Assembly (NCBI RefSeq): GCF_003611605.1
Contig: NZ_RAVX01000011.1
Location: 68,811 to 132,810, forward strand
Direction: 5' to 3'
DNA from: Corallococcus sp. AB011P
Lineage (GTDB): Bacteria; Myxococcota; Myxococcia; Myxococcales; Myxococcaceae
Length of the DNA: 64,000 bases
Position 1 is the stretch's first letter. Each line of letters opens with the position of its first letter. A program made the position numbers and the translations under genes. Of this stretch, positions 14,487-45,894 are shown piece by piece. The notes beneath the pieces are model-generated. The model had not been told where the DNA came from and made no database searches. It worked only from the letters and a program-made list of their open reading frames with translations.

Positions 14487-14547
14487 GGTGGCACCCCCGG
14501 TTGTTCCACCCCCGCGCCGCCGGAAACGACGGCGCGGCGGGCGGGCT

Positions 14548-15261: not shown

Positions 15262-15264
15262 GGA

Positions 15265-15588: not shown

Positions 15589-15650
15589 GAGTGTGTCCGC
15601 CTTCTCGAAGCTGTGCGCATGGGGGGCCGTGGGTCGGTCCCCGGTGGATG

Positions 15651-21300: not shown

Positions 21301-21742
21301 GGCGCGCCTCCGCCCCGCCCAGACAGGGAACGACGTCGCGGAAACCCGTTGGGTGCGAAAGAGGTCATGGTCGATTCCGGATCATGCCGTCTAACCCGTC
21401 CGCGGGCCAGCAGATGAACAGGGCTCTCCTCAAGCGAGAGGGGTGGGAAAAGGCGCGCGACGTATACCCCGGACCGGTGTTCTTCCTCCGGAATCCCGCA
21501 CGCGCGTGATGGTCCGATGACCGGAAACCGCCCGCCCACCCCCTTGTAGGGGTGGAATCCCACGAAAACAGTCAGGCTGTCACTTTCTTCCAACACCACC
21601 CTTCCCGTCCGGTTGGCGGCTGGGCGGGCGGGCAGGCGCCGGGCGGGGATTTTCAGGGGTTCTCTCGATCAGGACTCCGGGGGAAGGGCCCTGGGACGTG
21701 GCCCCGCCCGCTTCCCGAGGGAGCGCGGTAGAGTGCGAAACC

Positions 21743-27521: not shown

Positions 27522-29234
27522 CTAGCAGTCCACCGGGCCTTTCAGGCTGGTAACGGTCGCTTCGATTTCTTCACACCCTCCCAGGGTTTTCGCCCCGTGG
27601 GCCGCCAGCTTGATGCCCAGCACGTCCCCCACCACCACGTCCGCCATGGAGCGCACCACGACGCCGTCCCGCTGGCGGAACGTCACCGCGTAGCCGCGAG
27701 ACATCACCTTCAGGGGGCTCAGGGCGTCCAGGCGGCCCCCCAACCGTCCGAAGTGCGTCTGCGCGGAGGCCAACATGCCCCGCTGCAGCTCCAGGAGCCG
27801 CGAGCGCGCCTGGGCCACCTTCGCCCGCTCGGCCGCCACCCGCGCCGTGGGGGATTGCCGCTCCAGCCCCAGCCGCGCGTCCGCCAGCGCGCCCCGCCGC
27901 CGGGTGACTCCCGCGCGCGCCGCCTCCGACAGGCGCATGGCCAGCTTGAGCAGGTGCGCCCGCTGCTCCGACAACCGCGTCTGGGGCCGCGCCCGCTGCA
28001 GCCGCTCCTGAAGGGCGCGCAGCGTCTCCCGGTGCTCGCGCGTGCGGGGGCGCAGCACGCGCATCATCGCCTCCACCTGTTCGGACAGGTGCAGGCGCTG
28101 GTGGTTCACCTCGCGGCGAGGGTCCGGCAGCCGCGCGCGAAGCTGGCCCTGGCGCCCGCGCAGCTCCAGCACCCGCCGCTCCATGGCCCGGCGCAGCCGG
28201 CCAGACTGCGTGGCCAGCGTCAGCTCCAGGTCGGCGAGAACCGGGGCCAGCCGCTCCGCCGCCGCGCTGGGCGTGGGCGCGCGCAGGTCCGCGACGAAGT
28301 CCGAGATGGTGAAGTCGATTTCGTGGCCGATGGCGGACACCACCGGCACCGGCGAGGCGAAGATGGCGCGCGCCACCCGCTCCTCGTTGAACGTCCAGAG
28401 GTCCTCCACGGAGCCTCCGCCGCGCGTCACGACGATGACGTCCACGTCGGTGCGCGAAAGCCGCTCGATGGCCCGCGCCACGTCCTCCGCGGCGCCCTCG
28501 CCCTGCACGCGCGCGTCCGCCAGCAGCACGCCCAGCCGGGGGTTGCGCGAGTGCAGCACGCGCAGGAAGTCCTGGAGCGCCGCGCCGGTGCGGCTGGTGA
28601 CGACGCCGATGCGCCGGGGCAGGAACGGCACGGGCCGGGGCGGCCGCACGCGCCGGTCGCCAATGAGCCCCTCCGCCGCCAGCCGCTGCTTGAGCTGCTC
28701 GAACGCGAGCGCCAGCGCACCCTCGCCCACCGGCTCCAGCCGGGACACGATGAGGCTGTAGCGGCCCTGCGGCTCGTACAGGTCCACGCTGCCCTCGGCC
28801 ACCACCTCCATGCCGTCGCGCAGCGCGAAGCGGATCCGCCCCGCCATGGACGCCCACACCTTCGCGTCGATGGAGGCGTCCGCGTCCTTGAGCGTGAAGT
28901 ACCAGTGGCCGCGCGCGTTGGCGCCGCGGAAGCTGGACACCTCGCCGCGCACCAGCACGCGCGGGAAGCGCGACTCCACCGTCTGCTTGATCTGCCGGGT
29001 GAGCTCGCCCACCGACAACACCGTGCGCTCCGGGCGCGGCGGCGGGGTGACGGCGGCCGGGGGCGGCGGAGCGACTTCGGCCGCCGGCGCGGTGGGCGGG
29101 GCCGCGGGCGGCTTGCCTCCACTGGCGGCCTTCGCCGGCGCGGGACGCAAGGGGGGGAGCAGCGACGTGCCGAACAGGTCGCCCTGCCCCGGCGTCTCGG
29201 CCGGGGGCGGCTCCAGCCCCTTGCGCTTCTTCAT
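27522..29234 (-). CDS. xseA: Exodeoxyribonuclease VII large subunit with Pro-rich N-terminal extension
   Basis: It has an OB-fold plus the XseA catalytic domain. The start is the ATG at 29232-29234 (MKKRKG), which overlaps the upstream stop as ATGA. The 725-aa track ORF over-extends. Confidence 0.85.
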   Translation of the reverse strand: MKKRKGLEPPPAETPGQGDLFGTSLLPPLRPAPAKAASGGKPPAAPPTAPAAEVAPPPPAAVTPPPRPERTVLSVGELTRQIKQTVESRFPRVLVRGEVSSFRGANARGHWYFTLKDADASIDAKVWASMAGRIRFALRDGMEVVAEGSVDLYEPQGRYSLIVSRLEPVGEGALALAFEQLKQRLAAEGLIGDRRVRPPRPVPFLPRRIGVVTSRTGAALQDFLRVLHSRNPRLGVLLADARVQGEGAAEDVARAIERLSRTDVDVIVVTRGGGSVEDLWTFNEERVARAIFASPVPVVSAIGHEIDFTISDFVADLRAPTPSAAAERLAPVLADLELTLATQSGRLRRAMERRVLELRGRQGQLRARLPDPRREVNHQRLHLSEQVEAMMRVLRPRTREHRETLRALQERLQRARPQTRLSEQRAHLLKLAMRLSEAARAGVTRRRGALADARLGLERQSPTARVAAERAKVAQARSRLLELQRGMLASAQTHFGRLGGRLDALSPLKVMSRGYAVTFRQRDGVVVRSMADVVVGDVLGIKLAAHGAKTLGGCEEIEATVTSLKGPVDC

Positions 29235-30979
29235 CGCGACAGCTTCTCGACCCAGCCCTGGGCCTTGCCGTGCAGCTCGTCGTCGGGCGGCGTCATCGCG
29301 ACGACGTCGCGGAACTTGGGCAGCGCGTCCTCCGGGCTGGAGTCCTTGATGGAGTAGGCCTGCATGTACAGGTCCTTCGCCTTGGCCTTGAGGTCGTTGA
29401 CGATGTTGGCGGCGCCCGTGTGGCTGGGGTCCGCCTGGAGCGCGCGGCGGGCGAACTCCATGGCGCGCGACCACTGGCCGGCGGCCTTCGCGCCCGCGGC
29501 GCTCTTGTAATAGATGTTCCCCGCGCGGGTGCCCGCGTTGCGCGCCATCTTGCTCGTGCGCCCGTCGGTGATGTCCTTGTCCAGCGCGAGCAGGCGGGTG
29601 AGGCCCTTGGCGTCCAGGTCCTCCAGCTTCTTGTAGAGGTTGCCGAACTCCGTCATCTGCCCCATCAGCTGCTTGCACTGGGGCGTCTTGGCCGAGCACG
29701 CGTTGAGGATGGCCACCGCGCCGGTGATGTCAGCGTCGCGGAAGCGGTCCACCGCGGGCTCCCACGGCTTGGGCACCGCGGCCACACGCACGGGGTCCGG
29801 ACGCGTCAGGTCCGCGATGACGCGCACGGCGTCGTCGTTGACGAGCTTGCCGTCGCGGTGCTCGGGGAAGGTCGCGAGCACGTCGTCGGTGATGGCCTTG
29901 GCCTTCTGCACGTTCTCCAGCTGGCGGGAGTCCAGCAGCCCCTTGGCCTCCTTCGTGCGCTTGTCGGCGGCGTCCGTCAGGTTCCTGCGCGCCGTCTTCA
30001 GCTGCTCGTAGAGCTGGGTGTCGCTGGTCACCTTCTCGATGGACGCCTTCGCGCTGGCCAGCTCGCCCTTGTCCAGCGCCGCCTGGGCCGTGCCCAGGTG
30101 GTTCTGGTTGGGGATCTCCCGCTCCGCGGCCTTCAGGTAGTCCGCCACGCCGGGGTAGTCCGGCGCCTGGGCGTGGAGCTCCTCCAGCTTCGCCTTGGCC
30201 TGCTGCCACTGGCCCTCGCGCACCAGGTTCTTGGCATCCTGGAAGAGGCCGCCCAGCTGCTCGCGGTAGTTGCGCTGCTCCGCCTCGATGCGGCCCTGCT
30301 CCTCCGCCTGTTGCCGCATGCGCGAGCGCACGACGCCCAGGCCCGCGAAGAGCACCACCAGCACGGCGACGCCCGCGAGCTTCATCCGCATGCGCTTGCG
30401 CTGCGCCTCCGGAGTGAGCTCCGCGGCGGCAGCGGCGCGCGACGTCTGCGGGCGCGCGCGGCCCTCCCGGGCGGGACGCGGGGGCACGGCCGTGGGACCG
30501 CGGCCCGCCGCCGTGGACGGACGGGGCCGGGGGCCGGTGGGGGCCTGCACCTTCGCGGTGCTGTTGGCGGTGTCCTCGTAGCGCAGCTCCGAGTCACCCA
30601 GCGTGATGACGTCGCCGTTGGCGAGGAGCGTCTCCTCGGAGATGGGCTCGCCGTTGACGATGGTTCCGTTGCCGGAGCCCATGTCACTGACCATCCAGCC
30701 GGCGGACTCCTTGCGCAGCGTCACGTGCTTGCGCGAGACGGACGTGTCCTGGATGCAGATGGGGTTGTCGGTGGCGCGGCCGACCGTGTACTCGAGCTCG
30801 GAGAGCGCGAACTCCTCGCCCTCCATGGGGCCGGCGACGACGACGAGCTTCGCGGGGCGGGCCGCGGCGGCACCGGCGGTCGACCGGCGGACCGGCGCGC
30901 GCGAACCAGTCCCCGAGGAGGGCGTACCGGATGTAGGCCGTCGGCGGGCGGGGGGAGGTGCGTTCGACATGGAGGTCAC
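29231..30979 (-). CDS. FHA-domain protein with one TM segment and C-terminal TPR-like helical domain
   Basis: The N-terminus has FHA motifs (GRATDNPICIQDTSVSRKHV...GSGNGTIVNG). A TM segment KLAGVAVLVVLFAGLGVV is followed by a roughly 350-aa helical domain. Confidence 0.7.
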   Translation of the reverse strand: MTSMSNAPPPARRRPTSGTPSSGTGSRAPVRRSTAGAAAARPAKLVVVAGPMEGEEFALSELEYTVGRATDNPICIQDTSVSRKHVTLRKESAGWMVSDMGSGNGTIVNGEPISEETLLANGDVITLGDSELRYEDTANSTAKVQAPTGPRPRPSTAAGRGPTAVPPRPAREGRARPQTSRAAAAAELTPEAQRKRMRMKLAGVAVLVVLFAGLGVVRSRMRQQAEEQGRIEAEQRNYREQLGGLFQDAKNLVREGQWQQAKAKLEELHAQAPDYPGVADYLKAAEREIPNQNHLGTAQAALDKGELASAKASIEKVTSDTQLYEQLKTARRNLTDAADKRTKEAKGLLDSRQLENVQKAKAITDDVLATFPEHRDGKLVNDDAVRVIADLTRPDPVRVAAVPKPWEPAVDRFRDADITGAVAILNACSAKTPQCKQLMGQMTEFGNLYKKLEDLDAKGLTRLLALDKDITDGRTSKMARNAGTRAGNIYYKSAAGAKAAGQWSRAMEFARRALQADPSHTGAANIVNDLKAKAKDLYMQAYSIKDSSPEDALPKFRDVVAMTPPDDELHGKAQGWVEKLSR

Positions 30980-31006
30980 CGCGTCCTGCTGAGGGGGGCA
31001 CGGGCC

Positions 31007-34000
31007 CTAAAGCTCGTGCTCATAGGCTTTTTCCTGCGCGAGATTGTGGCAGCGATGCTCGGCCGTAGGGAAGCGTCTCCGTACGTCTTCCAGGGTCGCG
31101 ACCGCATCCCGTCGGCTGCGGAACTGAACCGCCCGCTGGAACTGCATCATCAGCTGGCTGCAGCGGTGGTCCAGCTCCGTTGAAATCTGGGCGATCCGCT
31201 CCCGGACGTCCTCGTAAAGCTCCGGCTTTTCGTCCAGCGCTTCCAGGGTGATCCACGCGGCGCGGTACTCCCGCCACGCCTTGAACAGGTTCTCCGCGCC
31301 CACGTCCTTGAGCTCGTAGAAGCGGGCCCCCGCCTTCGCGGCCTCCCGGGCGGAGGAGACCAGCTGATCCGGCGGCAGCTCCGGCACCGGGATGACCTCC
31401 AGCCGCAGGTTCCAGATGCGCCACGGGTCGCGGCCGGGCGGGTTGAGGGCGTTGTCGAAGAGGAGCTGGTTGTTGGCGTTGCGCCGCAGGAGGCTGGGCG
31501 GGAGGACCTGCTCCAGCTCGCGCTCGGCCGTCTGCGCAGTGTCCGGGGGCACCCAGCCCAGGGATACGCCGTTGAGGGACAGGTTGACCTCGTCCCGGGC
31601 GATGCCGCTGGCCTGGTAGTGCAGCACCGCCACCGCGCGCGTGGGGGACACGAAGCGGAAGTCGAAGAGCTTGTCGTCGGCGTGGACCCAGCGCACACCG
31701 TCGCCCAGGCCGAAGGAGTCCGTCACCGGCTCCATGCCCAGCTTGAAGGGTTCGCGGCCCGGGAGCCGGATGGCCGTGGGGGCCGCGAGCGCTACGAGCA
31801 GCGTCACCACGCCCAGCATGGCCACGACCGCCAGCGACGCGAAGCCGATGCGCTTGGGCAGCGACTGGCGCTGCCAGAAGAGGAGGAACCGGCCCTGGAG
31901 CGACTTGCCCAGCTGACGCCGCTTGCGGGCCTTGTCGGCGGCGGACGAGGGCTCGACCTTCGCGACGACCGTCACCGGGCCGTTGGGCACGGGCTGGGCG
32001 ACGGAGTCCTCCAGGTCGGCGGGCACGGGCAGGGTGGCGTCACCCTCCACGTCCGGAGCGGGTACGCGGGCCAGTGGGGATTCGCCCGGCGGCGGGCCGG
32101 GGGGGATCCAGGCCGGAGGAGGCGCCACGGCCGGTGCGGCGGGCCCGGGCGCGACCTGGCCCGTGAAGGTCCCCGAGGCCCGAGTCTCCTCGGGGGCCGC
32201 GGAGAAATCATCGTCCTGGCCGACGAAGGTCGAGGGCTCGCTGGAGTCGATCGCGGCGGCGGGCGCGCTCACGACGCGGACCGGCGGGGCCACGAGCGGA
32301 CTGACCGGGGTGATGGGCCGGAGTTCGAGGAGCGTCCGCTCCTCGGGCTCCTCCATCGCCGGCGGAGGCAGCGCGGGCGAGGCCTCCTGCTGCGGCGGCG
32401 CCACTTCCAGGGGCGGCGCTTCCGGGGCCGCCGGAATCGCCATCAGCGTGCGCTCCTCGGGCTCGTCCAGCTCCGGGAAGGGCAGCACGGGAGGCGGCAC
32501 GGCGGCGGGATTGGGCGAGCCCACCGTGGAGATCGCCATCAGCGTGCGCTCCTCGGGCTCGTCCAGCTCCGGGAAGGGCAGCACGGGAGGCGGCGCGGCG
32601 GCGGGATTGGGCGAGCCCACCGTGGAGATCGCCATCAGCGTGCGCTCCTCGGGCTCGTCCAGCTCCGGGAAGGGCAGCACGGGAGGCGGCGCGGCGGCGG
32701 GCTCGGGTGCGGCCGCCGTGGGAATCGCCATCAGCGTGCGCTCCTCGGGTTCGTCCGGCACCATGGGGGCCAAGCCCACGGGAGGCGGTGCGACGGAAGG
32801 CCGTGCTGGAGGCGGCGGAGCCATCAGCCCCGGCGGCGACATCAACGGCAGGCCGGGCGCGGAAGCCGCGGCCCCCCGGGCCGCCGGAGCAGTGGACGCG
32901 CGCGCGGCGCCAAGCCCCAGCGAGGGACGGTTCAGCGCGGGCGCACCGACACCGGGCAGGTTCGCGACGGCGTGCCGCTTCGCGGGAGCCGCTGGTTCAA
33001 CGGGAACTGCCGCGACCTTCTCCGGAGCGGAGGCCGCCGTCGGGGCAGGAGTTCCGGCCGCGGGAAGCTCGATCGCCGTGGGGTGCGAGGGCGCCGGGGC
33101 AGCCTCCGGCGCGGACGACCGGCCCGGTCCCGAGGCACCGACCGCTGACAGTCCCGGCCCGGAGGCCCGGACGGAGGCGGAAGCGCCCGAAGCCTTGTTC
33201 GCCGCCGAGGCGCTCAGCACCGGGGGGCCAGCAGGAGCCTTGGCCGGAGCACCCGGCGCCGAAGGCCCCGACACGGGAGGTGCGGCGGGAACCTTGCCCG
33301 AAGCAGCGGACGCGGAGGCTCCCAGCACAGGAGGCCCGGCGGGAACCTTGCCCGAAGCAGCGGACGCGGAGGCCCCCAGCACAGGAGGCCCGGCGGGAAC
33401 CTTGCCCGAAGCAGCGGACGCGGAGGCCCCCAGCACTGGAGGTCCGGCGGGAACCTTGCCCGAAGCAGCGGACGCGGAGGCACCCAGCACTGGAGGCCCG
33501 GCGGGAGGCTTGAGCGAAGTCGCCGCACCCGGCGCGGAGGCCCCCAGCACAGGAGGCCCCGGAGGAGTCCGGACCGGTGCAGCCGCGCCTGGCACCGAGG
33601 CACTGACCGCAGGAAGATCCGGAGCGGAGGGCCGCTTCGGTGTAGCGGCCGCGGGCAGCGGCATCGCCGGGGTCGCCCCACCCTTCGCGGCGGGCACGGC
33701 CATTCCCGGGCGCGGTAGGGATGCAGGCCGGGCCATGGCCGGCATCGACTGCTGGTAGCTCGTGGGCGCCGCTTCGATCTCCGCGAGCGAGGCCTGCTCC
33801 ACGCCCTGCGGCGACACCCTCGCGTGGGGCGGCGCGAGCACCCGCCGGATGGGCCGGGTGACGTCGTTGTCATCCTCCGGCGGCACCCACACGAAGGTGA
33901 ACTCCACCGGCCCCACGGTGATGCGGTCGCCGTCGCGCAGCTGCTTCTCGCCGCCCAGCGGCTGGCCGTTCAGCTGCGTGCCGTTCGCGCTGCCAACGTC

Positions 34001-34105
34001 CTCCGCGAAGTAGCGCCCATCCCTGGCCGTGATGCGGGCATGACGCCGGGAGACACCGTGGTCATGCAGCACCAGGTCGTTCTCCGAGGTCCGGCCGATC
34101 TTCAC
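31007..34105 (-). CDS. Giant FHA-domain protein (1032 aa): FHA, long Pro/Ala-rich repeat linker, TM, C-terminal globular domain
   Basis: The N-terminus is an FHA domain (GRTSENDLVLHDHGVSRRHARI...GSANGTQLNG). It is followed by 18-aa repeats (x4) and 32-aa repeats (about x4), then a TM segment FASLAVVAMLGVVTLLVALAA and a roughly 270-aa C-terminal domain. Confidence 0.7.
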   Translation of the reverse strand: MKIGRTSENDLVLHDHGVSRRHARITARDGRYFAEDVGSANGTQLNGQPLGGEKQLRDGDRITVGPVEFTFVWVPPEDDNDVTRPIRRVLAPPHARVSPQGVEQASLAEIEAAPTSYQQSMPAMARPASLPRPGMAVPAAKGGATPAMPLPAAATPKRPSAPDLPAVSASVPGAAAPVRTPPGPPVLGASAPGAATSLKPPAGPPVLGASASAASGKVPAGPPVLGASASAASGKVPAGPPVLGASASAASGKVPAGPPVLGASASAASGKVPAAPPVSGPSAPGAPAKAPAGPPVLSASAANKASGASASVRASGPGLSAVGASGPGRSSAPEAAPAPSHPTAIELPAAGTPAPTAASAPEKVAAVPVEPAAPAKRHAVANLPGVGAPALNRPSLGLGAARASTAPAARGAAASAPGLPLMSPPGLMAPPPPARPSVAPPPVGLAPMVPDEPEERTLMAIPTAAAPEPAAAPPPVLPFPELDEPEERTLMAISTVGSPNPAAAPPPVLPFPELDEPEERTLMAISTVGSPNPAAVPPPVLPFPELDEPEERTLMAIPAAPEAPPLEVAPPQQEASPALPPPAMEEPEERTLLELRPITPVSPLVAPPVRVVSAPAAAIDSSEPSTFVGQDDDFSAAPEETRASGTFTGQVAPGPAAPAVAPPPAWIPPGPPPGESPLARVPAPDVEGDATLPVPADLEDSVAQPVPNGPVTVVAKVEPSSAADKARKRRQLGKSLQGRFLLFWQRQSLPKRIGFASLAVVAMLGVVTLLVALAAPTAIRLPGREPFKLGMEPVTDSFGLGDGVRWVHADDKLFDFRFVSPTRAVAVLHYQASGIARDEVNLSLNGVSLGWVPPDTAQTAERELEQVLPPSLLRRNANNQLLFDNALNPPGRDPWRIWNLRLEVIPVPELPPDQLVSSAREAAKAGARFYELKDVGAENLFKAWREYRAAWITLEALDEKPELYEDVRERIAQISTELDHRCSQLMMQFQRAVQFRSRRDAVATLEDVRRRFPTAEHRCHNLAQEKAYEHEL
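32330..32790. repeat. 96-bp tandem repeats (three near-perfect copies plus degenerate flanking copies) encoding PVLPFPELDEPEERTLMAI... units
   Basis: The unit atcgccatcagcgtgcgctcctcgggctcgtccagctccgggaagggcagcacgggaggcggc... starts at 32436, 32532, 32628 and 32724. Confidence 0.8.
33291..33510. repeat. Four tandem 54-bp repeats encoding (GKVPAGPPVLGASASAAS)x4
   Basis: The unit accttgcccgaagcagcggacgcggaggcccccagcacaggaggcccggcggga recurs at 33291, 33345, 33399 and 33453. Confidence 0.8.
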
Positions 34106-34178
34106 TTCGGCCTGCTCGAAGGCGAGCTCCCGTCCAACCTGGAGCCCCTGGGTGATGGTGAGCAGGATGGGCAGAGGA

Positions 34179-35069
34179 CTAGCCCCCGACGTTGCCGAAC
34201 ATGAACTGGAACACGATGGGCCCGAAGAGCACCATGAACACCGTCGGGAAGATGCAGGCGATGAGCGGGAAGAGCATCTTCACCGGTGCCTCGCCCGCCA
34301 GCTTCTCCGCGCGCTGCGTGCGGTCGATGCGCATCTGCGTGGACTGGATGCGCAGCACCTTGCCCAGGCTCGTGCCCATCTTGTCCGCCTGGATCAGCGC
34401 CGTGACGAACGTCGTCAGGGACGGCAGGTCCACACGCACGATCATGCTCTTGAGCCCCTCTTCACGCGTCTTGCCCATCTTGAGCTGCTTGAGCACCAGC
34501 TGCAGCTCTTCACGCAGCGGACCCTGGCGGCCCTTCTCCACCACCTTCGCCAGAGCACCCGTGAAGTCCATGCCCGCTTCCACCGACAGCGTCAGCAGGT
34601 CCAGGTTGTACGGAAGCGCGCGGCTGATGGCCAGGTGCCGGCGCTTCACCTGATCGTTCAACCAGATGAGCGGATAGAACAGGCCCAGCAGCATCACCAG
34701 CAGCGACCAGGCCAGGTTCGACCCGAGGCCGTTGACGACGAACAGGCCGACCAGCAGGCCGAAGAAGGCGCTGATCTCCTGCAGCGCCATGATGTCCTCG
34801 GGCTTGTACTGGGACGGCTCGCCCGCCTTGATCAGCTTGCGGCGCGTCTTGGACTCGTAGCCCGGCCACATGAAGCGCCGGTTCATCGCGCCCAGCTTGC
34901 GGATGGCGACGGAGCCCGCGCCCTTCATGCCGCCCGCGGACTCGTCGCGGACTTCCGTGAGGAAGCGCTCCAGGAGGTTGGAGTACAGGCCGATGCCCAG
35001 GAACGCCACCGCGCCCGCGGTCAGCAGTGCCGAGCCGCCCATCAGCAGAAATGTCAGGACTTCCTGCAC
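34179..35069 (-). CDS. tadC: Type II secretion system F family protein (TadC-like inner membrane platform)
   Basis: It has the GspF/T2SSF domain with three TM segments. Confidence 0.8.
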   Translation of the reverse strand: MQEVLTFLLMGGSALLTAGAVAFLGIGLYSNLLERFLTEVRDESAGGMKGAGSVAIRKLGAMNRRFMWPGYESKTRRKLIKAGEPSQYKPEDIMALQEISAFFGLLVGLFVVNGLGSNLAWSLLVMLLGLFYPLIWLNDQVKRRHLAISRALPYNLDLLTLSVEAGMDFTGALAKVVEKGRQGPLREELQLVLKQLKMGKTREEGLKSMIVRVDLPSLTTFVTALIQADKMGTSLGKVLRIQSTQMRIDRTQRAEKLAGEAPVKMLFPLIACIFPTVFMVLFGPIVFQFMFGNVGG

Positions 35070-35082
35070 GGTGCGCCTCGTT

Positions 35083-35928
35083 TCAGATGTCGATGTTGAC
35101 GATGCGCCGGATGATGAGGATGCCCATGATCTCCATGATGGCGATGATGGTCACCAGGATGTAGCCGAAGATGTGGTTCATCATCGGCTCCATCAGGTCC
35201 GGACGCATGTAGTTGAGCACCAGGCCGAGCACCGCCGGCATGGCCGCGACGATCCACCCTTGAAGCTTGCCCTGGGACGTCAGCGCGTCGATCTTGCCTT
35301 CCAGACGGAAGCGCTCGCGGATCACCGTGGAGATGGTCTCGAACATCTCCGCCATGTTGCCGCCCAGCTGGCGCGCGATGTTGGTGGACACCACCACCAG
35401 CTCCAGGTCGTCGCTGCCCACGCGGCGGCCCATGTTGATGAGCGCCTCCTCCAGCGGCACGCCCAGCTTCACTTCCTTCACGAAGAGGCCGAACTCCTGG
35501 GACAGGGGCGGCATCGCTTCGCGCGCCACGTGCTCGATGGCCTGGGGGAACGTGAGGCCCGCCTTGAACGCGTTGGCCATGGCCTGCAGCGCGTCCACCA
35601 ACTGCACGTTGAACTTCTTGATGCGGCGCTTGCGGTAGTGCTTCACGAGCAGCATCGGCAGGAAGAAGCCGAAGATGGTCGCGAGCACCGCCAGGATGGG
35701 GTTGAAGATGATGTAGCTGAGGATGCCCAGGAGGCACATGCAGGCGATGTTGAGGATCAACATCTGCCGCGGGTCGATGAAGAGGAACATGTCGCTCAAG
35801 TCGTTCATCGACTTGGCGACGTACCGCTCCTGGTACTGCTCATACGCCTTCGACAGGACGCTGAAGATCACCAGGCTGAAGAAGAACACCGAGCCGGTGA
35901 CGAGAAGGAGGACGATACCTGCGAGCAT
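35083..35928 (-). CDS. tadB: Type II secretion system F family protein (TadB-like inner membrane platform)
   Basis: It has a T2SSF domain and is the paralogous partner of the adjacent gene. Confidence 0.8.
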   Translation of the reverse strand: MLAGIVLLLVTGSVFFFSLVIFSVLSKAYEQYQERYVAKSMNDLSDMFLFIDPRQMLILNIACMCLLGILSYIIFNPILAVLATIFGFFLPMLLVKHYRKRRIKKFNVQLVDALQAMANAFKAGLTFPQAIEHVAREAMPPLSQEFGLFVKEVKLGVPLEEALINMGRRVGSDDLELVVVSTNIARQLGGNMAEMFETISTVIRERFRLEGKIDALTSQGKLQGWIVAAMPAVLGLVLNYMRPDLMEPMMNHIFGYILVTIIAIMEIMGILIIRRIVNIDI

Positions 35929-36006
35929 GGGCGCGAATCCCCGGGGGATGAGGGAGGGGTCGGCAGGGCCGCTTCAGCCTTGAACGAAGCGGCCCCGCGC
36001 GCGGAA

Positions 36007-36825
36007 CTACGGAGAGCCGGCCGAGGCCTTCTCGCCGCCGCCGCTGCCCTTGATGATCTGGATGATCTCCCGGCGCTTCTGCTCCAGCACGCGGGTGCGC
36101 TCACCGGAGAGCAGCGTGCTGATGGTGGCGCGGCCGCGTTCCTCGATGAGGTCCACGTCGTCCTCGTTGCGCAGGGACAGGGTCAGCTGCCCCAGCTCCG
36201 CCGCCAGCACCAGGATCTCCGCCTCTTCCGGCAGCACCATCAGCGAGACGTTGGAGTACTCGCGCTGGTTCTCCGGGATGAGGTTGATGTTCGTGGTGCC
36301 GGTGATCTTGCCCGTGGCGACCACGATGATGTTCTGCAGCAGCGTCACCGCGACGCTCTCGTCCGTCTGCGGATCGCGGAACGTGCCGATGATGTCCACG
36401 TGGTCGTTCGGGCGGATCCACCCGCCCACGGACGTGGTCTGCTTCGCCTCGATGGTGATGGCGCGCGCCTTCTTCTGCACCTTCGTGGACAGGCGCTCGG
36501 CGGCCTTCGTCGTCTCGAACTGGCTCCAGAGGATGGGGTCGCCGGCCTGCAGCGCCACCAGCACCTTCTGGTTCACGATGTAGTTGGCGGAGTCCGGCTT
36601 CACCACCGACGAGGTGACGAACTGCTCCGGCACGGAGCGCTGGGAGATCATCTCGTACGTGATGACCGAACCCTCGGGCATGTCCTGGCCCGCCACCACC
36701 ACGGGCACCAGGTTCCACCCGCGGCGCACATCCGATTCCTTCTTCTTGATGGCCGAGTAGGCCACGATGCCCGCGAGCAAACCGAGCACCAGTGCGACGA
36801 CGAGTGGGGTCTTACCCTTCAACAT
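36007..36825 (-). CDS. cpaB: Flp pilus assembly protein CpaB/RcpC
   Basis: It has an N-terminal TM segment followed by SAF/RcpC-like domains. Confidence 0.8.
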   Translation of the reverse strand: MLKGKTPLVVALVLGLLAGIVAYSAIKKKESDVRRGWNLVPVVVAGQDMPEGSVITYEMISQRSVPEQFVTSSVVKPDSANYIVNQKVLVALQAGDPILWSQFETTKAAERLSTKVQKKARAITIEAKQTTSVGGWIRPNDHVDIIGTFRDPQTDESVAVTLLQNIIVVATGKITGTTNINLIPENQREYSNVSLMVLPEEAEILVLAAELGQLTLSLRNEDDVDLIEERGRATISTLLSGERTRVLEQKRREIIQIIKGSGGGEKASAGSP

Positions 36826-37058
36826 GGTTCAAAGTCCTCCAGAACGGTGGGGCGCCGTCGTGGCGGCAGGACTGCTTTGGACGAGGGGGCAATGCCAGGG
36901 CGCGAACGAGGCAAGATGTTAGCCATGCCCCAGAGCAGGTGTCAAAACCACCTCTCGCGACAAAGCGGAATCCCGGGACCTCCGGAGCTCACGGAGCCTG
37001 CCCGCCCAAGGGGGAGGACGGCTCGACGCAGCGAGTTGATCCGCGGCCTTTGCGTCCC

Positions 37059-37361
37059 TCAGGGGAACGGCAGGTTCAGCACGAAGTAAAACGAGTCGTA
37101 ATAGATCTGGTACGCCTCGAGGAACAGGTCGATGACGTTGGTCTGCCGGTCGTCCGTCCAGCGGATCTTCACCGTGGCGCCGATGACGAGCCCGACGATC
37201 AACACCCAGTTGATCATCGAGTACTCCACCATGGCCTGGCCACGGCGGGCCCGGCGCGGGGAGCGCGGCGGTGACTTCCGGGGGCTGTTCACGGGGGGAG
37301 CGTGCACGTCCGACGTCATGTCCCCATTATCCAGGACCCGGGCCCCGGACGCATCGGTCAT
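37059..37361 (-). CDS. Flp/Tad-type pilin (class III signal peptide)
   Basis: It has the Flp motif G/QAMVEYSMINWVLIVGLVIG (G-x4-EY followed by a hydrophobic stretch). It has an unusually long leader of 27-41 aa depending on the start. Its GC content is locally lower, about 55%. Confidence 0.6.
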   Translation of the reverse strand: MTDASGARVLDNGDMTSDVHAPPVNSPRKSPPRSPRRARRGQAMVEYSMINWVLIVGLVIGATVKIRWTDDRQTNVIDLFLEAYQIYYDSFYFVLNLPFP

Positions 37362-39514: not shown

Positions 39515-39545
39515 GGCCTGTAACGGACAGCCGTGCGCGAAAGGT

Positions 39546-39965
39546 CTATTCCGGCCGTGGCCGCCGGTAAGTGGCGAGAATGACAGGGACCGCCACCCCT
39601 GTCACCAGAAGTGCCTGCGCCAGCAGCACCGCCGGTAACGGGCGCTGCACATGCACGTACAGCGAGCGGCCGAGCCCCACTCCCAACAGGATGCCCGTCA
39701 GCGTACGAACCGCGTTGGAACCCGAAGCGGGCCGGAAGCGTCCCACCGCCCAGTCCACGAGCGCGGGCAGCGTGAGCGCCAGCACCACCGGCACGTCCCA
39801 CTCCCACCTGAGCGGCGCCTTCAGCGCGAACAGTCCGAGGAACACGGCGGCGAGCACCGGATACGTGCCCAGGCACCGCGCGCACACGCGCACGCCCGCG
39901 AGCACGTACGTGCGGTTGTACTCATCCGGGTGATGATGGCTGAGCCAGAACACCGGCACCTCCTC
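39546..39965 (-). CDS. DUF2085 family membrane protein
   Basis: It has the [10 protein letters not shown] motif and three or four TM segments. The start is uncertain: the ATG at 40094 overlaps the upstream ABC gene and a GTG near 39965 is likelier. Confidence 0.5.
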
Positions 39966-40973
39966 CGGACGCGGAAACAGCGGGCCCGTCCTGCACGTTG
40001 CGCGAATCCCCTTCGGCCAGGAAGCACGCCGCGGCGTGGCCTCCACCCAGGGGATACAGCGGGGGTGACTCGCGGCGGCAGCGCTCCATCGCATGCGGGC
40101 AGCGCGGATGGAACGCGCAGCCGGTCGGCGGCGACAGGGGCGAAGGCGGCTCTCCCGGCAGCAGCAGCCGCGCGCTGGGACGCTCCGGATCCGGCACCGG
40201 CACCGCGGACAGCAGCGCCTGCGTGTACGGATGGCGAGGCCCTGCGTACAGCGACCGGGACGGCGCCACCTCCACGATGCGGCCCAGGTACATCACCGCC
40301 ACGCGCGTGGACACGTACTCAACAATCTTCAGGTCGTGCGCGATGAAGACGTACGTGAGCCCGCGCTCGCGCTGCAGGTCCACCAGCAGGTTGACGATCT
40401 GCGCCTGGATGGAGACGTCCAGCGCGCTGATGGGCTCGTCCGCCACCACCAGGTCCGGACGCAACGCGATGGCACGTGCAATGCCGATGCGTTGACGCTG
40501 GCCGCCGGAGAACTCGTGCGGGTAGCGGTGCCGCGCCTCGCGAGGCAGCCCCATGGCGTCGAGCAGCGCCAGCACCTCGTCCTCGCGCGCCTTGCCCTTC
40601 GCGAGGCCGTGGATGGCGAAGGGCTCCGCGAGGATGTCCCCCACCGTCATGCGCGGGTTGAGCGACGCGTAGGGGTCCTGGAAGACGAGCTGCATCTGTC
40701 GTCGTAGCGGCCGCAGCTCGCGCTGCGACAGGCCGGTCAGCTCGCGCCCGGCCACGCGGATGGAGCCGGATGTCGGGTCGATGAGCCGCAGCACCGCGCG
40801 GCCCAACGTGCTCTTGCCGCAGCCGCTCTCCCCCACCAGGCCCAGCGTCTCGCCGCGGGCGACGTCGAAGGACACGCCGTCCACCGCGCGCACCGTGCCG
40901 CGCGTGCGGCCCAACAAGCCGCCCTTCACCGGGAAGTGCACCTTGAGGTCGCGCACCTGGACCAGCGGTTCGC

Positions 40974-40977
<4 letters not shown>
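39922..40977 (-). CDS. ABC transporter ATP-binding protein, DppF/OppF type with C-terminal oligo_HPY domain
   Basis: It has [23 protein letters not shown] and the C-terminal GCAFHPRCP. The start is the ATG at 40977 (MSEPLVQ). Confidence 0.85.
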
Positions 40978-41980
<1,003 letters not shown>

Positions 41981-41984
<4 letters not shown>

Positions 41985-43000
41985 TTCTGGGCCAGCTCCT
42001 CCAGGAACTCCGCCTCCTGGATGAGCCCCTTGCGGATGAGCAGGCGGATGAGGCTCGCGACCATGCGCGCGGGCTTCACCTTCTCCGTGTCCAGGCTGGC
42101 CTCTTCACCGCGCGAGATGCGGTCGATGTCGTCCAGCACCGCCAGGTCCTCCTCGGAGAAGTCCGGCTTGGGCGTGAGCGCCACGGACGGCTTCACGCCC
42201 TGCGCGGCGCCGCCGAAGAGCACCACCGGCACGCGCGGCTTGCTCGGGTCCTCCGGCTCCGCGGGGGGCGGAGGCGGGGCCGGCGGACGGGCCGCGGCGG
42301 GCGGAGGCGGCGGACGCGGGGCCTTGGGGACCTTGGGACGGGGCGTGGAGCCCAGGATGTCCTCCAGCACCTCCGCGCCGTCGGCGGACGCGTCGCCCTC
42401 GTGCGGCGGCGGCGGCGGCAGGTCCCAGTCCAGCGTCGGCGGCGCGGGCGGACGCGGCGGCGTGGGCGCACGCGCGGCGGCCGGGGGGGGCGGCGGCGAC
42501 GGCAGGATGTCCGGCGAATCGTCTTCGTCCATGTCCATCGGTTCAGCCTCCACGATGTCCAGGGGCTCGCCCCGGCCTCTCGCCAGTGCCTGCTCCAGGT
42601 CGTCCGACGAGGCGACGAACACCTTGAGCGGCTTGCGCAGCTGGAAGCGCAGCTCATCCACCAGCATCAGGTTGCCCGGGTCTTCCACCGCGACGTGGAT
42701 CTTCTCACTGCGGCCGTCCTGCTCCGAAGCGAAGAGGAGCACCCGGTGCTCGCTCTGGAAGTCCATGGACACCAGCGAGGACACCGCATGCGGGATGTAC
42801 TCGGGGAGCTCCACGAACGGCAGCTCGTGCTGCGCCGCCAGCGCCTTCGCGATGTCCCGGCCCGTGCACAGGCCCATGGACACCAGCACCTCACCCAGCT
42901 TGCGGCCCTGGCCGCGCCGTCCGGACGCGAGGGCCTGCTTCACCTGCTCGTCCGTCACCACTCCGGCCTGGACGAGGAGTTCACCAATCTTCTTGCGCAT
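41981..43000 (-). CDS. Stand-alone MshEN / T2SSE_N domain protein (predicted c-di-GMP receptor), no ATPase domain
   Basis: The N-terminus has tandem 24-aa MshEN motifs, [24 protein letters not shown]...Q and [25 protein letters not shown]. These are followed by a GspE_N fold, a Pro-rich linker and a conserved C-terminal helix. Confidence 0.7.
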
Positions 43001-43009
43001 GGCCGGGGG

Positions 43010-43759
43010 CTACCGCTTGACCTTGGCGAGGTATTCCTCGCGGGAGAAAACGCCCTTCTCGATGAGCAGCTCCACCATGGCCTTCAGCGCCGCGACCTCC
43101 TTGCGCTGGACCTCCTCCACGCTCTTGAGCAGCTCCGCGGGGCTGCCAGAGGCCGCGCGAGGCGGCTCCGGCGGGGGGGCCTGGCGGGGAGGCGGAGCGG
43201 CGGCGGGCTTGGGGGACATGGCGACGGCGGCGGCCGGGTCCAGGTCCTTGAGGTTCTTCACGACGGTGCGGCCCTGCGCGTCCACCACCTTGAAGTTGGT
43301 GTCCGCGTCCTCCAGCTCCGCCGTCTCCTCGTAGAGGCGCGCGAACGCCCGCGCCACGGAGGTGCGCCCCGCCACGTTGGCCACGATGCGGCACTTGGAC
43401 AGGGCCCGCAGCTCGTCCAGCACACGCACGTTGAGCGGGTCCGACATGGCGACGACCAGCGTCTTGCCGTCGTCGCGCAGTTGCAGCGGCACCACGGAGA
43501 AGTCGCGCGCCGTCTGCGCCGGAATCTTGGCCTTCACGTGCGGCGGCACCATCTGCACGGAGTCCAGGTTCACCGCCGGCATGCCCAGCTGCTTCGACAA
43601 GGCGCGCACGAGGATGTCCTCGGAGACGAGGTTCATCCGGACGAGGATCTCGCCCAGCTTCCCGCCCCACTTGGCCTGCTCGGCGAGCGCCGCCTTGAGC
43701 TGGCTCTCCTGCAGGACGTTCGCCTTGATCAGCAGTTCTCCAAGCTTGATCTGTGCCAT
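43010..43759 (-). CDS. Stand-alone MshEN / T2SSE_N domain protein (second paralog)
   Basis: It has tandem motifs KLGELLIKANVLQESQLKAALAEQ and KLGEILVRMNLVSEDILVRALSKQ. Its architecture matches the downstream paralog. Confidence 0.7.
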   Translation of the reverse strand: MAQIKLGELLIKANVLQESQLKAALAEQAKWGGKLGEILVRMNLVSEDILVRALSKQLGMPAVNLDSVQMVPPHVKAKIPAQTARDFSVVPLQLRDDGKTLVVAMSDPLNVRVLDELRALSKCRIVANVAGRTSVARAFARLYEETAELEDADTNFKVVDAQGRTVVKNLKDLDPAAAVAMSPKPAAAPPPRQAPPPEPPRAASGSPAELLKSVEEVQRKEVAALKAMVELLIEKGVFSREEYLAKVKR

Positions 43760-43818
43760 GTCGTGCGCGCCATAGTACCCGGTTTGCGCCGGGACGCTGC
43801 CTTTCGACGCCTGGAAGC

Positions 43819-44649
43819 TCAGGAACCCGGCGCGGGGGGCGGCTGAGACACCGCCCCCTCCGAGCGGACCTCCTGGCCCCGCGCGTCGACGTCCACCACC
43901 TTCGCCCCCTCGGGCGCGCCCAGCTCGTAGAGGGTCAGGTCCGGGCGGCCGTTGAGGCGGATGTCCGTGTACTTCAGGTCCAGCCGGGTGTCCGCCGTGG
44001 CGGCGATGAGGTGCACCTTGTCCGGGAAGAACTGGTCGCCCCGCTGCTGGAAGTCCTCGAACGCCAGGTCGTAGCCCGGCACGCCCCGGACCTCGCTCTT
44101 CACCACGCGCAGGTGCTTGGGATCCACGCGCAGTGTCTGCGTCGCCGGTCCCCGCTGGAGCTTGAGCACGTACACCCGCTCCTTCTCGTCCAGCTCCAGG
44201 GTCATGGACTCCGGCGGCAGGAGGGGGACCTGCCCCAGCATCACCGCCACCAGCTCCTCGCTCGGCAGGACGACAGGCAGGAAGCGGGACACGTTCTCCG
44301 CGCTCGCGGGGCCCTGGAGGTACGTGTTCTCCCGCGCCTGGTAGATGCCGAAGCGCTCGCCATCGGACACGAGCGAGGCCACCGGGCGGTTGAAGAAGTC
44401 GTACGTCTCCAGGTGGATGAGGGCCGGGCGGGTGATGGAGAGATAGGTGGAGAGCGTTCCACTGCCCTGGGGCGAGTCGACGTGCAGCTTGGCGTCACCC
44501 TCCAGGGTCACCACCTTCGCCTGCCGCTCGCGCACGTGCTGGTAGAGCGTCTGGGCATCCTCGATGCGGCCCTCCGGACCGAACTCGAGACGTTTGGGGC
44601 AGGCCGAACAGAGGAGGACCAGGAAGATTGCGGCGGCTGCGCGGTTCAT
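43819..44649 (-). CDS. LolA/LolB-like outer-membrane lipoprotein (DUF4292-like)
   Basis: It has a lipobox LVLLCSAC and an all-beta predicted fold. It is divergent from tolQ. Confidence 0.45.
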   Translation of the reverse strand: MNRAAAAIFLVLLCSACPKRLEFGPEGRIEDAQTLYQHVRERQAKVVTLEGDAKLHVDSPQGSGTLSTYLSITRPALIHLETYDFFNRPVASLVSDGERFGIYQARENTYLQGPASAENVSRFLPVVLPSEELVAVMLGQVPLLPPESMTLELDEKERVYVLKLQRGPATQTLRVDPKHLRVVKSEVRGVPGYDLAFEDFQQRGDQFFPDKVHLIAATADTRLDLKYTDIRLNGRPDLTLYELGAPEGAKVVDVDARGQEVRSEGAVSQPPPAPGS

Positions 44650-44691
44650 ATGTCCTAGTGTGAGCCAGGGCCGCCTGCCCGGTCATCCATC

Positions 44692-45423
44692 ATGAGCCTG
44701 AACGATCTACTTCATTACCTTCGCCTGGGCGGCGTCACCCTCGCCCTCCTCCTGGGCGCCTCCGTGGTGGCCCTGGGCGTGGCCATCGAGCGGCTCATCG
44801 CCCTCTGGGGCGTGAGCGAGCGCTCCCGCAACCTGGGGGAGATCGTCCAGAAGCACCTCCTCCGGGGTGACATGGCCGCCGCCCGCACCGCCGCCGAGCG
44901 CTCCGACGCCGTGGCGGCCGACATCTTCCTCGCCGGGTTCGACCGCTGGGAGCGCTCCCGCTCCACTGGCGGCAACGGCATCGAGTCCGCCGTTGAGCGC
45001 GAGCGCGCCCAGGTGGGGCTCAAGCTGCGGCGCAACCTGTGGCTGCTCGCCACCATCGGTTCGACGACGCCCTTCGTGGGCCTCTTCGGCACCGTGGCCG
45101 GCATCATGCGCTCCTTCAAGGACCTGGGCGTGGACGTGGAGGCCGGTGGCACCGGCGGCTCCGCGGCCGTGATGACGGGCATCTCCGAAGCGCTCGTCGC
45201 CACCGCCGTGGGCATCCTCGTCGCCGTGCAGGCGATGGTCTTCTACAACTACTTCCAGGCCCGGCTGTCCCGCGTGCTGGTGGAGCTGCGCCTCCTGGGC
45301 GACGAGTTCGCGGAGGTGCTCAAGGAGCGCTCGGCCGGCGGCCCGCTGCCGGACGCCACGCCGCCCCCGCGTGAGAGCGCCACGCCCCCGGCTGCCCGCC
45401 CGGATCCGCAGCCCGCCTCGTAA
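44692..45423 (+). CDS. MotA/TolQ/ExbB proton channel family protein
   Basis: It has three TM segments and a conserved C-terminal TM motif (TTPFVGLFGTVAGIM). Confidence 0.8.
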   Translation: MSLNDLLHYLRLGGVTLALLLGASVVALGVAIERLIALWGVSERSRNLGEIVQKHLLRGDMAAARTAAERSDAVAADIFLAGFDRWERSRSTGGNGIESAVERERAQVGLKLRRNLWLLATIGSTTPFVGLFGTVAGIMRSFKDLGVDVEAGGTGGSAAVMTGISEALVATAVGILVAVQAMVFYNYFQARLSRVLVELRLLGDEFAEVLKERSAGGPLPDATPPPRESATPPAARPDPQPAS

Positions 45424-45438
45424 GGAGACACGCCCACC

Positions 45439-45894
45439 ATGGCCATGGGAAAGACGCCCGGCTCGGGCGACGACGAGGTGGAGGGCGCGGGCTTCGCGGA
45501 GATCAACATCACGCCGCTGACGGACGTGATGCTCGTGCTGCTCATCATCTTCATGGTGACCAGCTCGGTCATCACCCAGCAGGGCCCGGGCGGCGGCGCC
45601 AAGGCGGGCCTCAAGGTGAACCTGCCCAAGGGCGGCGCCGCGGACGTCACCGCGCGCACCACCGACCTGTCCGTGGCGGTGCTGGCGGACGGCCGCTTCG
45701 TGCTCGCGGGCAACGTCGTCGCGGAGGCGGAGCTGAAGCAGGCCTTCGACAACGCGAAGAACCAGAACCCCGACACCGTGGTGATTGTTCAGGCGGACGA
45801 AGGCGTCCCCCACGGCACCGTGGTGCAGGTGATGGAGCTGGCGAAGAAGGCCGGCCTCGCGCAGCTCGCCATCGGCGTGCGCGAAGGCGACTAG
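45439..45894 (+). CDS. ExbD/TolR family protein
   Basis: It has an N-terminal TM segment INITPLTDVMLVLLIIFMV and the conserved Asp of the ExbD fold. Confidence 0.8.
   Translation: MAMGKTPGSGDDEVEGAGFAEINITPLTDVMLVLLIIFMVTSSVITQQGPGGGAKAGLKVNLPKGGAADVTARTTDLSVAVLADGRFVLAGNVVAEAELKQAFDNAKNQNPDTVVIVQADEGVPHGTVVQVMELAKKAGLAQLAIGVREGD

Follow-up and report, generated by a model that had tools for sequence, protein, structure and literature searches.

We analyzed a 64,000-nt stretch of the Corallococcus sp. AB011P genome (contig NZ_RAVX01000011.1; hereafter, the window), which has a guanine-plus-cytosine (GC) content of ~71% and whose positions serve as feature coordinates throughout; features lie on the minus strand unless stated otherwise. 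Two adjacent genes, P2 (43010..43759) and P1 (41981..43000), encode stand-alone MshEN proteins of 249 and 339 aa, the orthologues of MXAN_4667 and MXAN_4666 of Myxococcus xanthus. An earlier note on this DNA had described a pair of free MshEN proteins at 41981-43759, and open reading frames (ORFs), Pfam, NCBIfam and fold, the last including an AlphaFold2 (AF2) model of P1, all confirm that description. The P2 stop and the P1 start are 9 nt apart, and the codon-position GC of both ORFs is gene-like for this 71% GC genome (GC at third codon positions, GC3, 0.92 and 0.95). P2 is 86% identical to protein P0019 of M. xanthus DK1622; identity between Corallococcus and Myxococcus P2 proteins is 83–86%, on par with that of adjacent metabolic enzymes, and reaches 100% at locus L002 of the comparative set described below. 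P1 is 55–61% identical to its orthologues in M. xanthus and Stigmatella, and the gene order is common to all of them.

Profile searches divide the N-terminal half of each protein in the same way. Pfam family PF05157 (MshEN) matches P2 residues 58–147 (E 5e-15, 55.6 bits) and P1 residues 59–141 (E 2e-12, 47.3 bits), above a cut-off of 23.1 bits, and the preceding residues, 5–57 of P2 (64.8 bits) and 4–57 of P1 (59.7 bits), match NCBIfam model NF053729, ‘cyclic di-GMP-binding domain, MshE-related’, above a cut-off of 38. Sequences in the Protein Data Bank that matched P2 or P1 were exclusively N-terminal domains of PilF, PilB, MshE and XpsE. An AF2 model of P2, built on a 53-sequence family alignment (A1), had a mean predicted local distance difference test (pLDDT) score of 89.5 and superposed on Vibrio cholerae MshE with bound cyclic di-GMP (c-di-GMP; 5htl_B) with a target TM-score of 0.85 and a root-mean-square deviation of 2.2 Å in Foldseek, which matched 5htl, 8pdk and 9g1w at probability 1.00. 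Residues 1–145 of both proteins were modelled at pLDDT ~95–98 as a four-helix bundle and an alpha/beta subdomain. The bundle of P2 (MshEN_N, 43589..43747) holds two 24-residue motifs within the NF053729 match, with model helices at residues 6–12, 18–31, 35–41 and 47–58, and precedes a T2SSE_N1-like alpha/beta subdomain (MshEN_C, residues 58–147, 43319..43588; pLDDT 97–98). The corresponding parts of P1 are MshEN_N, with motifs I and II and the NF053729 match, at 42830..42991 and MshEN_C (residues 59–141; pLDDT 94–97) at 42578..42826. Both the MshEN domain call and the GspE-N1-like fold that had been predicted to follow the motifs were borne out by these results.

The same holds for the absence of a pilus-type ATPase core, which domain scans upheld for both proteins. 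The two ORFs stop after a C-terminal hairpin, neither protein belongs to the T2SSE (PF00437) ATPases, and neither P1, P2 nor any scanned ORF of the window yielded a T2SSE/PilB/CpaF-type ATPase domain, the ORF at its edge (1-1106) lying outside the scan. A frameshifted pilus ATPase remnant 3' of P1 was ruled out, as the downstream ORFs are intact Dpp/Opp-type ATP-binding cassette (ABC) ATPases. Database names for the family (P0001-P0120, P0271-P0390) are mostly ‘general secretion pathway protein GspE’, with one ‘Type IV fimbrial assembly, ATPase PilB’; because the proteins so named have no ATPase domain, we regard these names as misnomers and flag the public ‘GspE’ annotation as misleading. A phmmer search of 1.8 billion representative sequences returned 17,318 relatives, and the best 150 were mostly 200–300 aa long and aligned end to end. 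It follows that a stand-alone MshEN domain with a C-terminal hairpin is characteristic of a large family and is no oddity of this genome.

Following the motif numbering of Wang et al., P2 carries motif I at residues 5–28 (KLGELLIKANVLQESQLKAALAEQ) and motif II at residues 34–57 (KLGEILVRMNLVSEDILVRALSKQ), with a spacer of 5 residues, and P1 carries them at residues 4–27 and 34–57, with a spacer of 6. Two copies are therefore present in each protein, as first claimed, while the consensus that had been quoted for them does not hold throughout: position 1 is K rather than R in all four copies, and position 10 of the P2 motifs and much of P1 motif I also deviate. Both P2 copies contain K1, L2, G3, L6, L17, L21 and Q24. 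The motif consensus has since been widened to (R/K/L)LG, and the GSPII-B domain of PilF, with K167 at position 1, binds c-di-GMP with a dissociation constant of 6 nM, compared with 150 nM, or 25-fold weaker, in the K167R variant (PMC11731258); given that affinity, K at position 1 is not a defect. Measured against two successive copies of (R/K/L)LGxx(L/V/I)(L/V/I)xxG(L/V/I)(L/V/I)xxxxLxxxLxxQ, P2 is a full match apart from position 10, P1 motif II is intact and P1 motif I is a partial match.

Conservation of these positions was tallied in 72 P2 orthologues, which show no variation at L2, G3, L6, L17, L21 or Q24 of either motif, and in 55 P1 orthologues, which show none at G3, L21 or Q24 of motif II, while in motif I V predominates at position 17 and any of Q, K, R and G can occupy position 24. 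The residues invariant in P2 are those whose mutation weakens or abolishes binding in V. cholerae MshE (VcMshE), in which affinity falls 10- to 38-fold on mutation of L10, L39, L29 or L58 and 9- to 12-fold in Q32A and Q61A, G40I makes binding 72-fold weaker and G11L leaves no detectable binding (PMC5013675 Suppl. Table 1). Judged from these alignments, the predicted c-di-GMP-contact residues are held under strong purifying selection. Given this conservation and the acceptability of K at position 1, we consider P2 a strong, and P1 a reasonable, candidate for a c-di-GMP-binding protein.

Outside the MshEN domain, the two proteins share a C-terminal element. In P2 it is a helical hairpin spanning residues 207–248 (...EVAALKAMVELLIEKGVFSREEYLAKVK; 43016..43141), with helices at 207–234 and 240–248 (pLDDT 93–96) and with L232 and G236 near-invariant in alignment A1. 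The AF2 model of P1 comprises the confident MshEN domain (1–145), a disordered linker (146–282) and three C-terminal helices, which form a module at 41987..42154 (also delimited in alignment A4) made up of a helix at 283–296 and a hairpin at 310–338, with hairpin helices at 310–323 and 329–338. An hhalign comparison shows the hairpins of P1 and P2 to be homologous (probability 96%, E 2.7e-9), and P1-like proteins as long as 573, 635 and 1412 aa at distant loci retain the hairpin. The conserved short C-terminal helix reported earlier is thus real, and it is a helix-turn-helix hairpin in both proteins. A weak hhalign signal hints at the hairpin as a third half-repeat of MshEN_N that lacks the glycine (for P1, C-terminus aligned with the N-terminal half-motif, 84%, E 7e-6, 20 columns; for P2, 22%). 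The idea that the hairpin is SHOCT-like was dropped, since no relevant Pfam match appeared up to an E value of 10. We also observed giant P1-like proteins of 1412–1837 aa at four loci (L077, L078, L089 and L129; e.g., L089:8830-13068) in which the recognisable parts are an N-terminal MshEN domain and the C-terminal hairpin, the region between them having no Pfam match.

The P1 linker (residues 146–282; 42155..42565) is rich in Pro and Ala, with 44 Pro among its 137 residues (32%), and is modelled at pLDDT 45–65. The ‘Pro-rich spacer’ of the earlier note is accordingly Pro-rich and disordered, and yet it is not a plain spacer: among 44 orthologues in alignment A4, invariant columns define the short motifs PPPPP (195–199), L215-L216-G217 and VPVV.FGGAA (257–266), and a further invariant motif reads DL..L...R. 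The linker motifs look like docking motifs.

P2 is the first gene of an operon. In M. xanthus, a strong transcription start site (TSS) has been mapped at position −5 of MXAN_4667, which heads Operon 24 and is followed in it by MXAN_4666, 4665, 4664, 4663 and 4662 (Kuzmich 2022 Table S2); MXAN_4662 has a TSS of its own in addition, and MXAN_4667 and MXAN_4666 are expressed in growth and mildly lower in development, with log2 fold changes of −0.4 to −0.8 (Kuzmich 2022). The window contains a candidate −10 box, TACTAT (43777-43772), located 7 nt before position −5 of P2, so that the putative TSS at 43764 (feature 43764..43777), 5 nt before the P2 ATG, matches the M. xanthus location. A TAnnnT hexamer stands at equal spacing in M. 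xanthus and in two metagenome-assembled genomes. A consensus promoter scan of 39400-44800 returned no promoter-like site, the consensus being uninformative in this GC-rich genome, and a terminator scan of the same interval returned one site, located within the coding sequence of P2 (43068-43051), a yield that does not exceed that of shuffled sequences.

Downstream of P1 are genes that had been missed: the pair heads an operon that continues with two ABC ATPases, a DUF2085 protein and an extracytoplasmic function (ECF) sigma factor. The GTG start of a DppD/OppD-like ABC ATPase (40974..41984; hereafter, ABC_D), assigned by Pfam ABC_tran and oligo_HPY and by NCBIfam, overlaps the TGA stop of P1 (GTGA), and the ATG of a DppF/OppF-like ABC ATPase (39922..40977; ABC_F; Pfam and NCBIfam) overlaps the stop of ABC_D (ATGA); no permease or substrate-binding gene was found near the two. 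They are followed by a small membrane protein of family DUF2085 (PF09858, E 8.7e-10), for which the longest ORF is 39546..40094 and the start is probably at ~39950, its M. xanthus homologue having 135 aa. Pfam and NCBIfam then identify the ECF sigma factor equivalent to MXAN_4662 (38834-39514) and a zf-HC2 anti-sigma factor equivalent to MXAN_4661 (37380-38837).

Beyond the anti-sigma gene lies a Kil-type Tad-like cluster (29231..37361), assigned by Pfam, that matches the MXAN_4648-4661 region of Seef et al. It begins with a 100-aa Flp prepilin (37059-37361), which has no Pfam match and was recognized from its RRGQ/AMVEYSMI signature (G/AMVEY) ahead of a hydrophobic helix; judged by this signature, the ORF is probably a KilK-like major pilin, and a homologue is present at the low-GC locus L085. 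Pfam identifies the remaining genes as CpaB/RcpC (36007-36825), TadB (35083-35928), TadC (34179-35069) and two FHA proteins (31007-34105 and 29231-30979). In M. xanthus, the equivalent of this cluster is kil cluster 2 of the prey-killing Kil apparatus, which comprises MXAN_4648-4661; its last gene, MXAN_4661, is listed as a ‘putative zinc-finger’ (Seef 2021); this protein is an anti-sigma factor. The ATPase of the Kil system, KilF, is encoded in kil cluster 1 (Seef 2021). The M. xanthus operon of the MshEN pair abuts MXAN_4661, which places the pair next to a kil cluster, as expected of an accessory component of the Kil system.

To compare gene neighbourhoods, we pooled 80 genome loci, 80 metagenome loci and a few contigs retrieved via single family members, of which 166 loci contained a P2-like gene. 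Loci with at least 1.2 kb of downstream sequence were used to count P1, those with at least 1.2 kb upstream to count DUF4292 and those with at least 8 kb downstream (n = 72) to count Tad, ECF, DUF2085 and ABC genes, with a 10-kb limit for Tad genes. A P1-like gene lies directly 3' of P2 in 97 of 105 loci. Tad/Kil-type genes follow within 10 kb downstream in 63 of the 72 loci with enough flank, a stronger association than the nearness to a Tad-like cluster claimed at the outset; in several of the misses, big insertions move the cluster past the fetched flank. Within the same 72 loci, an ECF sigma factor (within 10 kb downstream) occurs in 69, DUF2085 in 65 and the Dpp/Opp-type ABC ATPases in 49. 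The synteny of the pair with Tad/Kil genes spans P2 identities of 37–100% and GC contents of 44–74%. That the pair stays beside Kil-type Tad genes across very distant relatives is the new observation of this study.

Two low-GC loci show this arrangement most clearly; it holds at P2 identities as low as 37–39%, and the DUF2085 proteins of these two loci are 37–38% identical to that of the window. Locus L090 (GC 50%) encodes on a single strand MshEN (242 aa), MshEN (635 aa), DUF2085, an 83-aa protein, CpaB, TadB, TadC and FHA, without ABC or ECF genes, and its CpaB, TadB and TadC are 55, 61 and 53% identical to those of the window. Locus L085 (GC 44%) encodes PilZ, MshEN (255 aa), MshEN (573 aa) and DUF2085 beside Flp, TadE and TadG-like genes, without an ECF sigma factor. 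At both loci DUF2085 is followed by a protein of 83–84 aa with a double CxxC zinc ribbon (L085:9969-10223 and L090:11135-11386), of which no homologue was found in the window or in Myxococcaceae loci, where the ECF sigma/zf-HC2 pair occupies this position.

The ABC genes have a narrower distribution. They are present in 42/42 loci at P2 identities of at least 70%, 6/21 at 55–70%, 1/7 at 45–55% and 0/2 below 45%, while the MshEN pair, DUF2085 and the Tad genes persist in lineages that lack them. Because of this lineage-bound distribution, the ABC ATPases between P1 and DUF2085 look like a later, lineage-specific insertion, in Myxococcaceae/Archangiaceae-like lineages, into an older MshEN–DUF2085–Tad string. 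Taken with the gene order at L085 and L090, the distribution points to the MshEN pair and DUF2085, next to Kil-type Tad genes, as the old and stable unit of the locus.

We propose that P2 and P1 form an input module through which the Kil-type Tad-like machine responds to c-di-GMP, a reading based on sequence and gene order to which we assign a probability of roughly 0.55. The earlier suggestion of a trans-acting c-di-GMP switch for a pilus motor encoded elsewhere is reasonable, and it is better supported now by the conserved gene order; its target may be the pilus motor itself, the TadB/TadC platform, DUF2085 or the sigma/anti-sigma pair. In the mechanism we envisage, P2 and P1 would be cytoplasmic receptors, each with a complete MshEN domain, a flexible linker and the common hairpin and neither with an enzymatic domain, made from a single transcript that starts just upstream of P2, within a gene string of DUF4292, P2, P1, ABC ATPases in some lineages, DUF2085, ECF sigma/anti-sigma and Flp-CpaB-TadB-TadC-FHA. 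c-di-GMP would bind across both 24-residue motifs of MshEN_N and turn MshEN_C relative to MshEN_N, as in PilF GSPII-B; this reorientation would alter binding by MshEN_C, the P1 linker motifs and the C-terminal hairpins to a presumed partner, either a component of the Kil machine or the membrane protein DUF2085, so that assembly or activity of the Tad-like machine, in whichever direction, would be tied to the c-di-GMP level. Acting in trans, the pair would resemble an MshE or PilB regulatory N-domain cut from its motor, with the motor (KilF in M. xanthus) encoded in the other cluster. A more detailed and distinctly tentative version, which we would not expect to hold in full, is a split MshE-type motor: the MshEN pair and DUF2085 would form a c-di-GMP-responsive recruitment or activation module of Kil in which the paralogues may pair via their hairpins, DUF2085 serves as membrane tether and the FHA-CpaF motor KilF is gated, in its assembly or activity, on the TadB/TadC platform.

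Several observations weigh against a role of the pair as Kil input module. The kil gene list of Seef et al. omits MXAN_4666 and MXAN_4667, and KilF carries an FHA domain and not an N1-docking partner (Seef 2021). Translational coupling of P1 in Myxococcaceae is to the ABC ATPase genes and not to Tad genes, and no Tad gene lies within 8 kb of the distant pair at L089. The loci counted are not phylogenetically independent, so that synteny among close Myxococcaceae is weak evidence, and deep cases on long contigs are few, namely L085, L090, L112, L120 and seven loci at 45–55% P2 identity (members of this group with at least 8 kb downstream include L144, L145, L148, L154, L165 and L167); four distant relatives (P0226, P0209, P0198 and P0152) sit on contigs too short for context and may be paralogues. 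As for the ligand site, position 10 is N rather than G in both P2 motifs, and P1 motif I is partly degenerate, with I2, V17 and G24, the last in place of Q. Finally, the literature searched contained no report of binding, interaction or phenotype for P2, P1 or their orthologues.

One alternative is that the pair regulates the Dpp/Opp-type ABC ATPases with which it is co-transcribed, in a c-di-GMP-responsive transport of peptides or other substrates, and that the Tad neighbourhood is incidental. The GTGA and ATGA overlaps that join P1, ABC_D and ABC_F fit this idea, as does the inclusion of the ABC genes in the mapped M. xanthus operon (Kuzmich 2022); the ABC pair is moreover an ‘orphan’ that might need a partner, and in a metagenomic clade (L103-L108; P2 identity 61–64%; e.g., L103:4402-6300) P1 is missing and P2 adjoins ABC_D. 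We nonetheless consider regulation of the ABC ATPases unlikely, given that their genes fade with falling P2 identity while the MshEN pair, DUF2085 and the Tad genes stay, as at L085 and L090.

A second alternative shifts the effect from the machine to its transcription: the pair would feed a c-di-GMP signal to the ECF sigma/anti-sigma system, for example by binding zf-HC2, and so set kil transcription. An ECF gene follows within 10 kb in 69/72 loci, MXAN_4662 belongs to the pair's operon, and the kil genes include its partner MXAN_4661. The Streptomyces RsiG-WhiG system is a precedent for c-di-GMP-dependent sigma/anti-sigma control. Yet L085 and L090 combine the pair, DUF2085 and Tad genes with no ECF sigma factor, no MshEN protein is known as an anti-sigma binder, and MXAN_4662 has a separate TSS (Kuzmich 2022), which together make this route improbable.

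We regard as similarly improbable that P2 and P1 are structural adaptors in which c-di-GMP binding has been lost or is inconsequential, with residues conserved for the stability of the four-helix bundle and a neighbourhood that is inherited gene order. Binding has been lost in many MshEN domains, for example XpsE and VC PilB (PMC5013675), the motif residues mostly double as hydrophobic core, and the N10 substitutions of P2 and the degenerate P1 motif I would fit such adaptors. However, Q24 of P2 contacts the ligand and not the core and is invariant in the 72 orthologues (the equivalent changes Q32A and Q61A cost VcMshE ~10-fold in affinity), G3 is likewise invariant, and the synteny outlasts large GC shifts and gene insertions.

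Very improbable, lastly, is a role of the pair with the upstream DUF4292/LolB-like lipoprotein (43819..44649) and the divergent TolQ/ExbB-TolR/ExbD pair beyond it (window 43819-45894) in an envelope process driven by the proton-motive force, because, although 108 of 125 loci have DUF4292 directly upstream of P2 and most loci above ~55% P2 identity retain ExbB/ExbD beside it, DUF4292 is absent upstream in 6/6 loci below 45% identity, L085 and L090 included, ExbB/ExbD were not detected in the group at 45–51% identity, and a strong TSS divides DUF4292 from MXAN_4667 and leaves it outside the mapped M. xanthus operon (Kuzmich 2022). The lipoprotein scored 49.1 bits against the Flavobacterium LolB1 model, just under its cut-off of 50.

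The wider surroundings are rich in c-di-GMP components, as had been noted before, with both of the proteins named in that claim being present. An SgmT-like hybrid kinase with the architecture GAF-HisKA-HATPase-REC is encoded at 18787-21300 (−), and the GGDEF profile matches its last 170 aa only weakly and in part (26.6 bits; best stretch, profile positions 3–39), which is consistent with a degenerate GGDEF domain of the receptor type. A response-regulator HD-GYP protein is encoded at 50464-51585 (+); its gene keeps this place, upstream of the MshEN pair by ~7 kb, in nearly all Myxococcaceae/Archangiaceae loci, and is accompanied there by genes for an acyl-CoA dehydrogenase and two MaoC dehydratases and by a DAP-DH-like gene. 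Elsewhere in the window, a tandem row of three bactofilin genes precedes a gene for a ParB-N-domain protein (13170-15992, −), an array that we take to resemble the BacNOP-PadC chromosome-segregation module of M. xanthus. Two long ORFs have gene-like GC3 and no Pfam match, one at 21698-23320 (+; 540 aa) and one at 1036-2844 (−; 602 aa); the latter overlaps other ORFs and may be spurious.

The Kil link, if correct, would bear on a specific gap. The spatial determinants of the Kil machine at prey contacts are described as unknown in a 2026 preprint, c-di-GMP matters for motility and development in M. xanthus, and no link between c-di-GMP and the Kil system was found in the literature searched. 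Two already catalogued MshEN genes and DUF2085 now become specific candidates for such a link, and the split-motor version, if true, would provide a molecular handle on the formation of Kil foci only at prey contacts. Should the Kil link fail, P2 and P1 would be ordinary paralogous c-di-GMP receptor candidates among the ~20 of each Myxococcus genome.

An ATPase-free MshEN pair is itself not new. MXAN_4666 (MRKIGELLVEAG...) and MXAN_4667 (MAQIKLGELLIKANVLQESQL...), as well as STAUR_5447 and STAUR_5448 of Stigmatella, were aligned as MshEN proteins by Wang et al. (2016; PMC5013675 supplement), the two from M. xanthus appeared there under the heading ‘Predicted c-di-GMP binding’ (PMC5013675 Suppl. 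Table 3), and M. xanthus was credited with up to 22 MshEN genes alongside many non-ATPase MshEN architectures (Wang et al. 2016, PMC5013675). A later count gave 17 MshEN proteins in M. xanthus and included MXAN_4666 and MXAN_4667 in a 70-gene c-di-GMP set (Kuzmich 2022). The novelty implied by the earlier note therefore does not stand, the orthologues having been catalogued in 2016 with an equal prediction and non-ATPase MshEN proteins being common. No published function of MXAN_4666 or MXAN_4667 was found in the literature searched, and the tags MXAN_4662 to MXAN_4669 were not found in its main texts.

MXAN_4667/4666 and STAUR_5448/5447 are direct orthologues of P2/P1 from which nothing of substance differs; P1 motif I ends in G here and in R in M. 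xanthus, and motif II begins with K here and with R there. The MshEN domain of V. cholerae (5HTL) is like P2 in its two-subdomain fold, its tandem motif and its L/G/L/L/Q contacts, but it continues into a T2SSE ATPase core, whereas P2 ends in a linker and hairpin and has K1 and N10. Thermus thermophilus PilF GSPII-B (8PDK), a structural match to P2, has K at position 1 of motif I as here, and its K variant binds c-di-GMP at nanomolar affinity, with binding reorienting the C-terminal subdomain (PMC11731258); unlike the free P2 and P1, it belongs to a pilus ATPase that has three GSPII domains in tandem. The FimX-PilZ-PilB system of Xanthomonas citri (7LKM family) offers a functional analogy, in that separate c-di-GMP receptors act in trans on a pilus machine via the N-domain of PilB, although that system uses an EAL domain plus a PilZ adaptor as receptor and the MshEN-like domain is the ATPase-borne target, as opposed to the free sensor predicted here. 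The Escherichia coli glycosyltransferase NfrB, Methylobacillus EpsG, M. xanthus FrgA and fusions to REC, HD-GYP or CheA show MshEN as a portable c-di-GMP module. Proteins of the NfrB/EpsG/FrgA type have a fused output domain, whereas in P2 and P1 conservation beyond the MshEN domain is confined to the linker motifs and the hairpin; for that reason, any output of P2 and P1 would have to pass through a partner protein.

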